DNA of 64,000 nt from Chloroflexota bacterium (GCA_016223085.1 JACRPS010000014.1:73269-137268); one strand, 5' to 3'. Shown: positions 25,864 through 31,284, numbered from the stretch's first letter. Numbers and translations: made by a program. The notes: generated from the letters alone by a model not told the origin.

Positions 25864-26916
25864 TTAGCCTATGATGTTCAGCGGAATCACGTCGGCGGAT
25901 TGCAGCATGACGACGCTGATCCGCGCGGCGGTGTTCTCCGCCACTGCCCGGAATGCCTGGCCCGCGGGATTGTCGGGGTCGGTGACAACGATGGGACGGC
26001 CATAATCGCCGCCCTTGCGGACATCGGCGTTCAGCGGAATCCGCCCCAGGAACGGCACATTGCGCTCCTGCGCCAGGCTTTCGCCGCCGCCTTCGCCAAA
26101 GAAATCGCCGGCCATGTTCTCCACAATGCCCAGAATCGGCACGTTAAGCTGATCAAACATGGCAATGCTGCGCAGCGCGTCGGCCACTGCCACTTCCTGC
26201 GGCTGGGTGACGATGACTACGCCAGTCAGCGGGAACGACTGCGCCAGAGACAGCGGCGCGTCGCCCGTGCCGGGCGGCAGGTCTACGATCATGTAATCAA
26301 TTTCGCCCCAGTCCACGTCGGTGAAAAGCTGGCGAATTGCGCCGTGCAGCATCGGGCCACGCAAAATCAGCGGCTTGCTGGGGTCGGTCAGGAAGCCGGT
26401 GCTCATGATCTTCACGCCATAGGCTTCTAGCGGCAGCATCATATTGTTCGCTACTCTGGGGCGACCGCTGCCCAGGCCGGTCATCTGCGGCAGGTTTGGG
26501 TTCAGGATGTCGCCGTCAATCAAGCCGACTTTCGCGCCGGCTTCCGCCAGACCAACAGCCAGGTTGGTGGCGACGGTGCTTTTGCCGACGCCGCCTTTGC
26601 CGCTGGCGACGGCGATAATACTGCGCATCGGTACATCCAGCCGCCCGGTCATGCGGCGGTCGGTGGGCACCTGCGCGTCCCACTGGATGTCCAGTTGCTT
26701 GATCGCCGGCACTTTGCCGAGGACGGCGCGTTTGCAGGATTCAATAAACACATTCTTAAGCGGGCAGGCCGGGGTGGTCAGGACGATGGTAAAACGGGCA
26801 GTATCGCCGTCAATCGTCAGGTCGCGCACCATGTTCAGGCTGACAATATCCCGGTGCAGTTCCGGTTCAATGACGGTGCTCAGGGCACGCATCACCTGGT
26901 CTCGTACATCAGTCAT
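25864..26916 (-). CDS. apbC: Mrp/ApbC/NBP35-family P-loop ATPase with N-terminal DUF59 domain; C-terminal CxxC absent
   Basis: [10 protein letters not shown]...[28 protein letters not shown] followed directly by AGDFFGEGG. Confidence 0.92.
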
Positions 26917-27055: not shown

Positions 27056-27084
27056 GTAGGGGAGGGTCTCAGACCCTCCCCTAC
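27056..27084. repeat. GTAG-type REP-like palindrome, copy 7
   Basis: GTAGGGGAGGGTCT-C-AGACCCTCCCCTAC, perfect 14-bp arms, after nuoI. Confidence 0.85.
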
Positions 27085-27110: not shown

Positions 27111-27173
27111 TTACCCGCCCTTCTGCGCCTTCTTCTGGCGGATTTTCTCCAGCATCGCCTGCTTGTCAAACTT
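27111..27173 (-). repeat. C-terminal tail module B of NuoI ([20 protein letters not shown]-stop)
   Basis: Identical peptide to 30074..30136; 7 synonymous nucleotide differences. Confidence 0.95.
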
Positions 27174-28151
27174 GGGCTTGCCACCGCCGGCAGGCGTTGC
27201 ATCCGGGCCAGCATTGGCCTGCGTATCCACCACAACCGCGGGTTCCGCGACCTGTTCGGCAGGCGCTGCTTCCGCTACCGTCGTCGGTTCAGACGAGGGC
27301 ATGCCGCCGGCTGCTGCGCGCTTGCGGGCCAGCGCGGCTTCGCGCTTCGCCAGACGCGCGGCCTTTTCCGGGTCTTCGGGCAGCACGTCCTGGGTCTTTA
27401 CGTCACCGGCCACTTCGGCCTGCTTGGTCGAGCTGGCAACGGCAGCAGCCGGTGCCTTGTCGGCGATTTCATCCGCGTCGGTCACAGGCGCTTTGGGCCA
27501 CATGTTGTCAATCGTCGGCTCGACCGGCGTCTTGCCCTGCTTCTTCATCGCCTTAATCACGTCCGGGTGTTCCCAGCCGCCGCGCGCGATGGCTTCTTCC
27601 AGCGCTGTTGTAGGGGCGATGGTCTTCCAGTAGCTTAACGGCTTCGACAACCGTTCTTTGTCGTGGATGTGGTTACGGGTGCGGTCGTAGCTCGCCATCT
27701 CGTAATCGTGGTCCATCTTGATGGCGTCGAAGGGGCAGAACTCGGCGCAGAAGCCGCAGTTCATGCAGATGTCTATGTCAATGAAAAAGGCCGTCGGCTG
27801 CGGGATGGGGCGGCCTGTAGCCGGGTCGCTGCCGCGCACAATCCAGATACACTGCGGCGGGCACACCTTGGCGCAGATGCCGCAACTGGTACACCAGTCC
27901 TCGCCTGGGGCTTCGGGATGGTCGTCGTCGTTCACCACCAGGAACGGCGTGAAGCGGAAGCGCTCCGGCACGGCGATTTTCTCGTCAGGATACTGCACCG
28001 TAAACGCGCCCTGCGCCTTCAAGCCCTGGCGGATTTCAAAGTTATCCTGGCGGAAGTACTTGCGCCCGGCATACCGTAGATCGTCCACGTAGGTGTTGAA
28101 GAAGTGTTTGAAGGTTACAAAGAGGCCCTTGAGTATGCCCTGTCCGTACAT
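27111..28151 (-). CDS. nuoI: NADH-quinone oxidoreductase subunit I (2x[4Fe-4S]) with a long C-terminal extension
   Basis: TVQYPDEK...PERFR, CTSCGICAKVCP, CMNCGFCAEFCPFDAI; GAGGAG RBS before ATG 28151. Confidence 0.88.
   Translation of the reverse strand: MYGQGILKGLFVTFKHFFNTYVDDLRYAGRKYFRQDNFEIRQGLKAQGAFTVQYPDEKIAVPERFRFTPFLVVNDDDHPEAPGEDWCTSCGICAKVCPPQCIWIVRGSDPATGRPIPQPTAFFIDIDICMNCGFCAEFCPFDAIKMDHDYEMASYDRTRNHIHDKERLSKPLSYWKTIAPTTALEEAIARGGWEHPDVIKAMKKQGKTPVEPTIDNMWPKAPVTDADEIADKAPAAAVASSTKQAEVAGDVKTQDVLPEDPEKAARLAKREAALARKRAAAGGMPSSEPTTVAEAAPAEQVAEPAVVVDTQANAGPDATPAGGGKPKFDKQAMLEKIRQKKAQKGG
27312..27374 (-). repeat. Tail module A of NuoI ([21 protein letters not shown])
   Basis: Identical peptide to 30257..30319; 7 synonymous codon differences. 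Confidence 0.95.
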
Positions 28152-28167
28152 CGTCACTCCTCATTTT

Positions 28168-28195
28168 ATAGGGGCGCACGGCCATGCGCCCCTAC
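28168..28195. repeat. GTAG-type REP-like palindrome, copy 8
   Basis: Minus strand GTAGGGGCGCATGGCCGTGCGCCCCTAT between nuoCD and nuoI. Confidence 0.8.
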
Positions 28196-28211
28196 ATCTG
28201 TTATCCTCTAG

Positions 28212-30068
28212 TTACCGGTCCGTCTCACCCAGTACGATGTCAATGCTGCCCAGAATCGCCACCACGTCCGCGACCTTGTGGCCGACGCACATCGGCCCCA
28301 GCGGGGTCAGGTTGATGAAGCTGGGCGCGCGCACGTGATAGCGCCAGGGATTCTGCGGGCCTTTTTCGTCACCGGCGGACACGACGTAGAAGCCAAGTTC
28401 GCCCTTCGGATTTTCAACGCGGCCATAGGATTCGCCCAGCGGCACACGCGGCGTGTGCTGCTTGTTGCCCGCAAAAATCGGTTCGCCCTTGGTGCGTTCC
28501 AGACGCGGCAGAAGCTGCTTGAGGATGCGCACGCTCTCGCGCATTTCGTCCAGCCGAATCAGGTAACGGTCGTAGATGTCGCCGTTGTAGCGCACCGCCA
28601 CGTCGAAGTCGAGTTCTGGGTAGATGCTGTACGGGTCAGCGCGGCGTACGTCATAGGGCACGCCGCTGGCACGCAGCAGCGGGCCGGCGGCGCTGTAAGC
28701 AATCGCCATTTCCGGCGGGAGATAGCCCACGCCGATGGTGCGTGCCTTGATGATTTCGCTGTCGGTGAGGAACGTGTCCAGCTCATCAATGGAGCGCGGG
28801 ATGCGCTCGTTGATGAGTTCCGTCAGGTAATCCATCGTATCGTAGTCGCGCATCATGTCGTTTATCTTGGCCGCGACGCTGTGAATCCGTTCCGGCAGGT
28901 CCTTAAAGACGCCGCCGAAGCGCATGTAGTTGCACATCATACGGCTGCCGGCGGTCGCCTCGAAGAAGTCGAGAATTTTCTCACGTTCGGCAATGGCGTA
29001 CAGGGCGGGCGTAAAGAACGCGCCCAGGTCATTGAGCAGGAAACCGATTGCCCAGTAGTGATTCACGATACGGGTGAGTTCCGTCATCAATACGCGAATC
29101 ACCTCAGCGCGGTAAGTGGGCGGCTGGTAGCGCGTGCCTTTCGATAAAAGCTGCTCGACGGCCAGCGCGTAACCAAGGTTGTTGCCCATGCTGCTGATGT
29201 AGTCCAGCCGGTCGGTGAAGGGCATGTTGTGCAGGAAAGTGTTACGCTCGCCAATCTGCTCGTGATTGCGATGCAGATAACCCATCACTGGCTCCAGCGA
29301 CTCAATCGTTTCGCCGTTGAGCGTCACAATCATGCGGAACACGCCGTGCGTGCTGGGGTGGTGCGGCCCCATGTTCACGACCAGCCGGTCGGTTTTCAGC
29401 GCCTCATCACTGTCAAGTTCCTGTATGCTGACACCCAGGCCGAGTTCGCTGTACAGCGCCTCCTCGGACCTGTCGGTGAGTTTGCTCAGGTCGAAGTCAG
29501 CCGGGTACTGAACGTTTTTGCCATAGACGTTACGTTCCTCAGCGCGGTACACCCAACCGTCCGGCCAGCGGCTGTCAAACGGCTTGTGTTCCTCGGTGTA
29601 ATATGGCTCTTTCCAGTCCTTCCGCATCGGGTGGCCTTCAAAGCCTTCCCACAGCAGGATACGCTTCAGATTTGGATGGCCGGGGAAACGGATGCCGTAC
29701 AGGTCGTAGGCCTCGCGTTCCTGGAAGTCCGCGCCAGGCCACACGTCAATTAGCGATGGGATTTCAGCGTTGTCGCGCGGGGTTTGCGCCTTAAACACTA
29801 GGGCCGGGCCGCCTGCCGTGCGGTAGGCGTGATACACCATCTCCATGTGATCGGAGATGCCGTAATAGTCAACAGCAGTCGCGCTGGACAGGTAATCAAA
29901 CCCCAGCTCGTCACGCAGCATCCGCGCGACTTCGACCAGGTAGTTACGGTCCACAATGATGCCGCTGTAACCCTGACGGGTATCTTCCTGGATGTACTCC
30001 GGGAATTTTTGCTTCAGGGATGTTACGGCTGCGCTAACGTCAGTTACTTCAATCGGATAATCCACCAT
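28212..30068 (-). CDS. nuoCD: Fused NADH-quinone oxidoreductase subunit C/D
   Basis: [22 protein letters not shown]...GHPMRKD (NuoC); [33 protein letters not shown] (NuoD). No NiFe CxxC motifs. Confidence 0.95.
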
Positions 30069-30073
30069 GTTCC

Positions 30074-30136
30074 TTAACCACCCTTCTGCGCCTTTTTCTG
30101 GCGGATTTTTTCCAGCATCGCCTGTTTATCGAACTT
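30074..30136 (-). repeat. C-terminal tail module B of NuoB ([20 protein letters not shown]-stop)
   Basis: Identical peptide to the NuoI C-terminus. Confidence 0.95.
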
Positions 30137-31078
30137 GCCCTTCTGGCCTTCGCTGGCGGTTGCCGTTGCAACGGTTGTCTCAGCGGCAGCCGCCGGCTGC
30201 GCGGCGGGTTCGGGCGCGGTGGCAACCTGACCAGCAACGGTGGCCTCGCCACCCTGGGCAGCGCGCTTGCGGGCCAGCGCCGCTTCGCGCTTGGCAAGCC
30301 GCGCGGCCTTTTCGGGGTCATCGGTGGTCGCAGCCGCTGGCGCCGCAACTGCCGGTGCTACCGCCTTCTTGGCAATGGCCTTCGGCGTGTCGGTGACTTT
30401 AATCGTCGGCGGTAGCTCGCGCACGCCGTAGGGTTTGCCCGCAGCCGCCAGTTCCGCCTGGCGACGAATCAGGTCCATCTGGCGCGGGTCAATGACGTCC
30501 GGACCGAGGATCGGAATCGGTGTCGGCTCGGACGGACCAACGCCGTACCAGGGCACGTCGTCGTGATTCGCCAGCGACTGGCCATCAATCTTCTTTTGCA
30601 GCGCGATCAGGCCGTAGAGCAGCGCCTGTGGCGTGGGGGGACAACCGGGCACGTACACGTCTACCGGCAAATACTGGTCAATGCCAGAGACAACATTATA
30701 CCCTTCCTTAAACGGCCCGCCGCCGCTGGCACATGCGCCCATCGCCAGCACGTATTTCGGCTCCGGCATCTGGTTATACAGGCGGACAATCGGCACGACC
30801 ATCTTTTTTGTAACCGTGCCGGACACAATCATCAGGTCAGACTGGCGCGGGCTGGCACGCATCACCTCCATGCCGAAGCGCGATAGGTCATACCGGGATG
30901 CGGCGGTGGCGATCATTTCAATTGCGCAGCAGGCCAGCCCAAACAGCAGCGGCCACACGGACGACCGCCGACTCCAGTTATAGATTTTGCTCAGGCTGGT
31001 GATGGCGATATTGCCCTGCAAATCATCCGGGATAGGAAATTCAGTGGTGTGCAACTCGCGCAGGTCGAGCTTTTCCAT
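30074..31078 (-). CDS. nuoB: NADH-quinone oxidoreductase subunit B with a long C-terminal extension
   Basis: [52 protein letters not shown]. Confidence 0.95.
30257..30319 (-). repeat. Tail module A of NuoB ([21 protein letters not shown])
   Basis: Identical peptide to NuoI 27312..27374. Confidence 0.95.
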
Positions 31079-31284
31079 TAAGATGTGACCTCCTCATACC
31101 ACTCCCGCAGAATTTCGTTGAGGATGCCATCGTTAGCGAGGGCGGGGTCATCGGCGAAATCAGGGAGCGTGACGATATAATGAAACAACTGCTCCAAACC
31201 CATCGTATCCAAATCTGCATCAGGGTAGGTTTCCATCAAGCTCAGGACAATCTCGTAGCTTGATTCCCAATACAGCTTACACAC
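31078..31284 (-). CDS. iscX: IscX (YfhJ)-like Fe-S assembly protein
   Basis: [10 protein letters not shown]...YPD...L...I..LPDFADDP...N..IL..I...WYEE follows the IscX pattern; TAATG overlap with the nuoB start. Confidence 0.85.

Follow-up and report, generated by a model that had tools for sequence, protein, structure and literature searches.

Matched C-terminal peptides on the NuoB and NuoI homologs of a divergent complex I in Phototrophicaceae (Chloroflexota)

Two iron-sulfur subunits of a divergent complex I in a Chloroflexota bacterium, designated here NuoB′ and NuoI′, end in the same pair of short peptides, and these tails are real, strongly conserved as protein, and under selection. Their genes lie in one operon within a 64,000-nucleotide stretch of DNA (the window; GCA_016223085.1 JACRPS010000014.1:73269-137268), which corresponds to C35:73269-137268 in an assembly of 6.0 Mb and 37 contigs; the names attached to related proteins and loci assign the organism to the Phototrophicaceae (Aggregatilineales, Anaerolineae, Chloroflexota). 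Each protein carries a 21-residue module A, a linker that does not align with its counterpart, and a 20-residue module B followed by the stop codon (Table 1). Across the 41 module codons, nuoB′ and nuoI′ differ at 14 synonymous (7 in A and 7 in B) and no nonsynonymous positions; of the codons that flank the modules, nearly every one differs nonsynonymously between the two genes. An original prediction made from the window had described these two modules, the codon count, and the unalignable linkers of 40 and 46 residues, and our recount agreed with it exactly. It had also attributed the identity to conservation at the protein level and not to a fresh DNA duplication, a view now borne out by a ratio of nonsynonymous to synonymous differences per site (pN/pS) for module B of 0.06 to 0.13 at pS of ~0.8, in paralogs and orthologs alike.

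The selection estimates come from 57 module B sequences in 25 genomes of the genus, among which pS approaches saturation; pN/pS is 0.06 for NuoB′-NuoI′ pairs within a genome and 0.085 to 0.13 among orthologs. All 57 recovered copies match KFDK.AML..IR..K, with 10 of its 15 positions invariant, and the tails without it belong to NuoH of the window genome and to a frameshifted NuoI′ from one genome (G016). The paralogs retain distinct synonymous signatures across species, NuoI′ tending to TTT, AAA, and ATA and NuoB′ to TTC, AAG, and ATC. There has therefore been no recent gene conversion, and the identity is held by selection on the peptide. Chance and mis-assembly are ruled out by the same tails in many independent metagenome contigs and in 24/24 other genomes of the genus, where a tail search recovered the NuoB′/NuoI′ pair ~2.8 kb apart. 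In the frameshifted case, the disruption affects the 3′ end of nuoI′ (contig G016:C9, locus L030), and module B appears in another frame as ...SINRRCWRKYVRRK...; either a fault of the assembly or genuine damage to the gene may be the cause, and NuoH of the same genome is also split over several frames (L035).

Module B is confined to this lineage. The tail search found no match in 16 genomes of other families, and a module B profile found none across the order (198 other genomes, 20 of which represent 11 further genera of the same family). The same profile yielded 12 matches among 1.84 billion representative proteins, each of which is a whole or fragmentary NuoB′, NuoI′, or NuoH from this lineage, and tblastn of the 6.0-Mb genome with both modules revealed no carriers beyond nuoB′ and nuoI′. 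The suggestion that the modules might be a tag common to other members of the proteome thus did not survive: in the genome, in the genus, and among the 1.84 billion proteins, the carriers of module B are only NuoB′, NuoI′, and canonical NuoH. The last of these is the third carrier and was found in ~14 genomes of the genus, where NuoH of a canonical 14-gene operon has 585 to 650 residues, adjoins an untagged 164-residue NuoI, and ends in an Ala/Pro linker followed by ...GGAKPKFDKxAMLAKIREKKANKG. NuoH of the sister genera has a short acidic ...GGD end, as does NuoH of the window genome (...TTGGD).

A tree of NuoCD′, the fusion protein encoded between the two tagged subunits, groups the window genome with four others (G019, G013, G002, and G012) in a well-supported clade that keeps modules A and B on both subunits. 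No module B match beyond NuoB′ and NuoI′ was found in this clade, with the absence from NuoH checked directly in the window genome. Other clades of the genus carry module B on NuoH and have lost module A, either on NuoI′ or on both subunits. The tree is unrooted, and the polarity of events comes from comparison with sister genera. The order of events was likely that module A was present on NuoB′ and NuoI′, that the ancestor of the genus gained module B behind A on each of them, and that B was then copied to NuoH while A decayed. The identical two-part design that was originally described is consequently no constant feature: module A is old and phylum-wide, module B is genus-specific, and A has been lost in many species.

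The history of module A can be followed much further. NuoI′ from the sister genera and from >60 metagenome clusters ends in an Ala/Pro-rich linker and then ...[DE]xxAAKAERL[RA]KRE[EA]ALARKRA[RK]xxGG-stop, of which KAERL[RA]KRE[EA]ALARKRA is the C-terminal module A motif of the family and order; NuoB′ of the same sister-genus genomes ends in a motif of the same type. NuoI′ of the Anaerolineales type ends in ...REEAKRAEKEAAKEAKRKAR straight after the core, and in Caldilineaceae NuoI′ ends in ...DAKKARMEELKRKAQERARQRKAE after a long linker and NuoB′ in ...KARAMMEEAKRRAAAKRAG. Lineage-specific variants are matched between the two subunits of one genome, as with KPWEE..D.RE.RKAAALARKAARAAK in G043 and G102 and with ARRL.KRQE..ARLAARRAAKK on both NuoB′ and NuoI′ of G127, and about half of the identical residues in these co-varying variants use different codons, which rules out recent gene conversion here as well. 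In many variants, an acidic head precedes a basic body. A module A profile run on 250 genomes of the class matched only reading frames of NuoB′ or NuoI′ size, and canonical NuoI of the window genome (contig C12) has no basic C-terminal helix of this type. Across the phylum, NuoI′ of this divergent NuoB′/NuoI′ lineage thus ends in a basic, Ala-rich helix that often has a counterpart on NuoB′. The helix sits directly on the NuoI′ core or at the end of a 60- to 130-residue Ala/Pro-rich linker, depending on the lineage, and the long linkers are a later elaboration. In two sister genera, NuoB′ of G043 (L071) and G102 (L072) carries two module-A-like copies with an Ala/Pro linker between them (...EEERRAAALARKAARAAKS...KPWEE..DIREQRKAAALARKAARA.K...), which is an independent two-module design. 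Canonical NuoE of the window genome (C12:226356-226850) also has a basic, Ala-rich, helix-like tail (...KMRAWIAEKRAEAAKAKK-stop) that resembles module A in character.

The two modules differ physically. Module A has a net charge of +4 over its 21 residues and +6 over an 18-residue core, a narrow Ala/Leu stripe in which two Leu are its only large hydrophobic residues, and a hydrophobic moment of 0.39 to 0.44; the corresponding values for module B are a net charge of +5, a moment of 0.11 to 0.18, and a mean hydrophobicity of ~-0.5. Both had been taken for basic helices, B being amphipathic with F, M, L, and I on one face. The basic character holds for both and the helix is predicted for B; the amphipathicity of B does not hold, given its moment, and in a regular helix F2 would lie on the face opposite M7, L8, and I11. 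An Asp N-cap combined with a Phe-Met hydrophobic staple would nevertheless gather F, M, L, and I. AlphaFold2 run on tagged NuoH with a 29-sequence alignment gave a mean predicted local distance difference test score (pLDDT) of 68, with ~81 for the module B helix and <50 for the preceding 40 residues; single-sequence prediction of NuoH gave 43. As judged by eye, Ala9 of module B usually goes with Glu13, and Glu9 with Gln13 or Ala13, a tendency that would fit helical i/i+4 contacts. With its F-D-K-x-A-M-L-x-x-I-R pattern and invariant polar residues, module B looks like a specific helical ligand. Its spacing from the folded part of the protein is loose: across the genus, the distance from a marker at the core end to module B ranges from 63 to 105 residues in NuoB′ and from 66 to 131 residues in NuoI′, and the linkers are unconserved.

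Known domains offer little guidance. No Pfam family matches the tails at E values up to 10, and profile searches of the Protein Data Bank with the tails returned only a nonsignificant WH2 match (N-WASP, E=0.066, 10 residues) and a Cdt1 docking peptide. The local likeness to the WH2 actin-binding helix of N-WASP and thymosin-beta consists of A-[ML]-L-x-x-I-R-x (KAALLDQIRE in WH2), and KFDK also occurs in thymosin-beta. Apart from its E value, the match lacks the LKKV motif and the organism has no eukaryotic actin, so we reject a WH2 domain and mention it simply to show what a short helical docking peptide can look like. An amphipathic membrane helix of the MinD/FtsA type is likewise rejected for module B on its moment and hydrophobicity, although the hydrophobic moments of comparison helices (0.57 for Escherichia coli FtsA, 0.27 for E. 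coli MinD, and 0.11 for Bacillus subtilis MinD) give no clean separation.

The proteins that carry the tails are readily assigned. NuoB′ has an Oxidored_q6 domain (PF01058, E=3.3e-28) and scores 227 bits against TIGR01957 (cut-off, 143), with other NCBIfam NuoB subfamily models also above their cut-offs; the N2-cluster cysteines of NuoB/PSST (CCxxE ... C ... GCPP), including VPGCPP, can be read in its translation. NuoI′ contains two CxxCxxCxxxCP motifs, CTSCGICAKVCP and CMNCGFCAEFCP, and matches Pfam as a 2x[4Fe-4S] NuoI-type ferredoxin; it scores 92.6 bits against the NuoI/TYKY model TIGR01971, under the 113-bit cut-off. We regard it as a divergent NuoI paralog with a larger core, an assignment supported by the place of its gene after nuoCD′ in the operon.

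Three further sets of nuo-like genes reside on contigs C12, C4, and C30. The first is a canonical 14-gene operon, nuoA-N, with untagged NuoB (169 residues) and NuoI (164 residues) and a 567-residue NuoH. The second (C4:36490-46782) is a membrane-arm operon of the order nuoA-H-J-K-L-M-M-N, with NuoL of 815 residues and NuoM of 527 and 594 residues; subunits B, C, D, I, E, F, and G are not encoded in it. The simplest view is that the tagged B′-CD′-I′ operon encodes the quinone-reducing module (subunits B, C, D, and I) of the C4 complex, as complementarity and co-occurrence would suggest: the sister genera carry a second NuoH too, and B′CD′I′ and a C4-type arm occur together in 12/12 sister genomes. 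The absence of NuoEFG from the tailed complex is confirmed for the window genome. With a second nuoM between nuoM and nuoN and no nuoE, nuoF, or nuoG in the cluster, the C4 operon is of the "2M" type, which is known from Chloroflexota and other phyla and, in its NuoEFG-less form, coexists with a canonical complex I in Chloroflexus aggregans (Chadwick et al. 2018 ISME J, as cited in PMC8004040). The likeness extends to the two nuoM-like genes, the long NuoL, the lack of nuoEFG, and the coexisting canonical 14-gene operon; the difference is that the B-CD-I genes here are split off into an operon of their own, headed by an iscX-like gene. A further mark of the 2M type is a NuoL lateral helix long enough to span the additional NuoM. 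NuoL of the C4 operon (C4:39265-41712) has a long insertion rich in His, Asp, and Glu (...HGMEHGEHHVHAHAHNHDDDH...HAHVESHAEHPHEAHPHFDP...) that might be a metal-binding loop.

Where, then, would electrons enter? To our knowledge, the electron input to a NuoEFG-less complex I is not known outside cyanobacteria, Campylobacter, and some archaea. We tentatively favor, by analogy, a reading in which the basic helices of the tails, held on flexible tethers, dock an acidic partner, most plausibly the electron donor. The basic helices would act as short recognition peptides assisted by electrostatic steering, so that an acidic partner could be caught or held at the exposed top of the B′-CD′-I′ module. 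The most likely partner would be a soluble low-potential donor (a carrier of the ferredoxin or flavodoxin type or a separate input module) in place of NuoEFG, and the presence of two identical arms per complex could confer avidity. Partial complex I enzymes are known to take other donors, namely, flavodoxin, ferredoxin, and F420H2 (PMC4453560). The closest analog is photosynthetic NDH-1, also a NuoEFG-less complex I, in which basic and partly flexible elements near the NuoI homolog attract an acidic soluble donor. In the cyanobacterial enzyme, ferredoxin occupies a strongly positive pocket to which NdhI and NdhH contribute Lys residues and NdhV and NdhO contribute K/R clusters (PMC7021789), and capture of ferredoxin by "fly-casting" has been proposed for the Lys-rich flexible C terminus of NdhS (Schuller et al. 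2019, as cited in PMC13249358). The basic elements of NDH-1 sit on separate small subunits, whereas the tails described here are the ends of core subunits. Homology to NdhS, NdhV, or NdhO is rejected on the absence of any Pfam match, and functional analogy remains.

Several points weigh against the docking of an electron donor. First, in a derived subclade, module B is present on NuoH of a canonical, NADH-oxidizing 14-subunit operon that has no obvious need of an alternative donor. Second, the location of that copy is awkward. Canonical NuoH of the family (C12:231429-233132 in the window genome; L013-L017 and L080-L090) is predicted to have one additional transmembrane (TM) helix at the N terminus and two at the C terminus, and a strongly conserved acidic loop, ...DDP[IV][IV]TGER.G..., separates the latter two (TM9-TM10); the C-terminal extension is also found in Aggregatilineales genomes in which NuoB′ lacks a basic tail. 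The loops TM1-2 and TM5-6 of NuoH/ND1 are cytoplasmic. If a topology count of 8 canonical plus 2 extra C-terminal TM helices, oriented by the positive-inside rule, is correct, the NuoH tail and its module B would emerge outside the cell, beyond the reach of any cytoplasmic partner; with the tail there, no cytoplasmic partner could be common to that copy and to NuoB′ and NuoI′. The K-rich composition of the NuoH tail argues the opposite way to this count. Third, F, D, K, A, M, L, I, and R are strictly invariant in module B, which speaks for a specific groove and not for generic electrostatics. Fourth, identical peptides on two arms would be needless for a single monomeric donor.

The main rival, if a somewhat doubtful one, is a structural role: the tails could be clamps or intercomplex tethers that bind acidic surfaces of complex I (their own or a neighbor's) or form charge-complementary antiparallel pairs, and could thereby stabilize the exposed module or cluster the two isoforms or a supercomplex. 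The precedent comes from E. coli and other Enterobacteriaceae, in which NuoB, NuoI, and NuoF have C-terminal extensions that run along the peripheral arm and make an intermodule interface three times as large (PMC8357420). Like the tails, they are lineage specific, conserved within a clade, located on NuoB and NuoI, and stand in for supernumerary subunits. Clamping would accommodate the confinement of the modules to complex I subunits, the co-variation between NuoB′ and NuoI′, the copying of module B to canonical NuoH (if the two isoforms need the same function), the strongly acidic NuoCD′ (net charge of -25), and the acidic heads and basic bodies of many module A variants; we would also expect the tagged B, I, and H subunits to have free C termini at the junction of the two arms. 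The E. coli extensions, however, are 22 to 45 residues long, ordered, mostly devoid of secondary structure, mutually unrelated in sequence, and bridge to NuoEFG, whereas the tails here are 100 to 130 residues long, consist mostly of a predicted-disordered Ala/Pro linker, bear the same helical end peptides on both subunits, and belong to a complex without NuoEFG. Linkers of 60 to 130 unconserved, predicted-disordered residues are unlike ordered, shape-complementary extensions, and with no associated NuoEFG, we reject a stabilizing extension of the E. coli type. Moreover, identical helices of charge +5 should repel each other, a NuoH tail outside the cell could not reach the cytoplasmic tails, and basic tails show no co-occurrence with either the acidic TM9-TM10 loop of NuoH or IscX; docking of the tails on that loop is rejected for this reason.

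A further reading is one that we consider rather improbable but still worth stating: modules A and B may form a complex-I-specific, transferable system of address peptides, in which a short helical ligand would have been copied repeatedly among the free C termini of NuoB′, NuoI′, and NuoH and kept matched through long periods by the need of every copy to fit one dedicated receptor (an electron-input protein that docks or a scaffold that organizes both isoforms). Cargo peptides of microcompartments and encapsulins provide a formal parallel, with an enzyme, a poorly conserved linker, and a short terminal helix common to several cargos; they differ in that module B is nonamphipathic and its carriers are subunits of a membrane complex. 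Targeting to a microcompartment or encapsulin is rejected: no protein besides the complex I subunits has module B in the genome or among the 1.84 billion representatives, module B is nonamphipathic, and no encapsulin was found in the genome. Microcompartment shell genes (PF00936, above cut-off) are present at C29:76713-76940 and C9:38559-39059.

It is unlikely that the tails are iron-sulfur insertion or repair handles that recruit an IscX-like protein, a carrier of the Mrp/NUBPL type, or both. They are found on exactly the two cluster-binding subunits; the gene for the IscX-like protein (net charge of -13) is translationally coupled to nuoB′, an Mrp/NUBPL-like gene lies downstream, and this synteny is family-wide. 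Yet IscX-like genes precede nuoB′ without a basic tail at seven loci (L095-L097, L103, L107, L113, and L114), basic tails occur without IscX at two (L102 and L106), and NuoH, which has no iron-sulfur cluster, gained module B too. The inconsistent co-occurrence of IscX-like genes and basic tails weakens the case for the IscX-like protein as an obligatory partner. Quite unlikely, too, is binding to anionic lipid head groups or another polyanion, which would keep a soluble B′-CD′-I′ intermediate bound to the membrane pending assembly with the arm encoded elsewhere. The module and the membrane arm are indeed encoded at different loci, the tails are strongly basic, and lipid on both sides of the membrane would accommodate an outward NuoH tail. 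This reading must contend with a module B that has no clear hydrophobic face (although the moment of B. subtilis MinD is just as low), with invariant polar residues (D3, K4, and R12) that generic electrostatics would not lead one to expect, and with a NuoH that is already an integral membrane protein.

An action in translation, whereby the basic C-terminal peptide would slow or arrest the ribosome from within the exit tunnel, with the folded domain held outside by the linker, to promote co-translational assembly with the products of neighboring genes or regulate the downstream gene, is highly improbable: the layout of a domain, a linker of at least 60 residues, and a peptide 2 to 5 residues before the stop resembles force-sensing arrest peptides as they are generally known, the nuoB′ stop is 5 nucleotides ahead of the nuoCD′ start, and the effect would be indifferent to the membrane side of the tail, but there is no direct evidence for it, the distance from motif to stop varies, and module A lies 60 residues upstream of the stop in the genus and is still conserved in the clade of the window genome. 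That the tails are functionless leftovers of 3′-end duplication or gene conversion between GC-rich, Ala/Pro-coding stretches would account for the ectopic copying that one peptide on three genes needs, which GCN-rich low-complexity linkers could promote, but is effectively refuted by the selection on module B at saturated synonymous sites, by its uniform motif in all recovered copies, and by the retention of the basic NuoI′ helix across the phylum.

Our literature search found no description of shared NuoB/NuoI C-terminal peptides. The tails are a new form of lineage-specific complex I extension, the nearest cases, those of E. coli and NDH-1, differing in architecture and having no detectable sequence similarity. 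A conserved, exposed, and tethered peptide on an electron-entry subunit can be used as a pull-down bait or as a target for deletion, and if the modules are address peptides, they could serve as bait for the electron donor of the NuoEFG-less complex I of Chloroflexota. If the tails are only clamps, they would be a second and mechanistically different case, beside E. coli, of core-subunit extensions that replace supernumerary subunits. Their evolution is unusual in any event: one C-terminal peptide is matched on two and later three subunits, and an older module was augmented and then replaced by a newer one, which shows that short linear motifs can be copied between bacterial genes.

Table 1. 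Features of the tagged operon and the adjoining gene, in window coordinates
Feature	Position	Strand	Details
iscX-like gene	31078..31284	-	68 aa; isoelectric point 4.05; net charge -13; first gene of the operon; PF04384 E=3e-14; NCBIfam TIGR03412 IscX above cut-off
nuoB′	30074..31078	-	334 aa; canonical NuoB core with N2 cysteines, conserved extension to ~aa 230, then tail
Module A in NuoB′	30257..30319	-	aa 254-274
Linker A-B in NuoB′	30137..30256	-	40 aa; Ala/Pro/Thr/Glu-rich; unconserved
Module B in NuoB′	30077..30136	-	aa 315-334; then TAA
nuoCD′ fusion	28212..30068	-	618 aa; net charge -25; no tail; PF00329 and PF00346; NCBIfam NuoD equivalog NF004739 above cut-off
nuoI′	27111..28157	-	348 aa counted from GTG; N- and C-terminal core extensions, then tail; Fer4 families
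Module A in NuoI′	27312..27374	-	aa 262-282
Linker A-B in NuoI′	27174..27311	-	46 aa
Module B in NuoI′	27114..27173	-	aa 329-348; then TAA
G+C-rich hairpin GTAGGGGAGGGTCTGAGACCCTCCCCTAC, then T-rich run	27056..27084	-	follows nuoI′ stop; genome-wide palindrome family
mrp/apbC (NUBPL-like iron-sulfur carrier ATPase)	25864..26916	-	350 aa; PF10609 E=7e-85 and PF01883; directly downstream; own AT-rich upstream region

The stop codon of the iscX-like gene shares 1 nucleotide with the ATG of nuoB′ (TAATG), and the iscX-like gene is kept upstream of nuoB′ in all genomes of the family examined. The true start of nuoI′ is probably the ATG at 28151, two codons past the GTG at 28157 chosen by the open reading frame finder, which would give a protein of 346 residues; a Shine-Dalgarno sequence, GAGGAG, abuts the GTG upstream of this ATG. 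Downstream, mrp/apbC is syntenic with the iscX-nuoB′-nuoCD′-nuoI′ operon across the genus and family. Its product has no CxxC after the ENM motif, and its sole cysteines lie in the N-terminal DUF59-type domain (TPACP...ESCK). Elsewhere in the genome, the third nuo-like cluster (C30:50493-58213) comprises NuoK, L, N, B, C, D, H, and I homologs with 28 to 49% identity to the canonical set. The hairpin after the nuoI′ stop, probably the operon terminator, is one of two G+C-rich TAGGGG...CCCCTA palindromes that flank nuoI′, the other lying between nuoCD′ and nuoI′ (28169-28194). By a regular-expression count, the genome contains 346 palindromes of this form with 9-bp arms, a number suggestive of a family of intergenic repeats akin to repetitive extragenic palindromes (REP).

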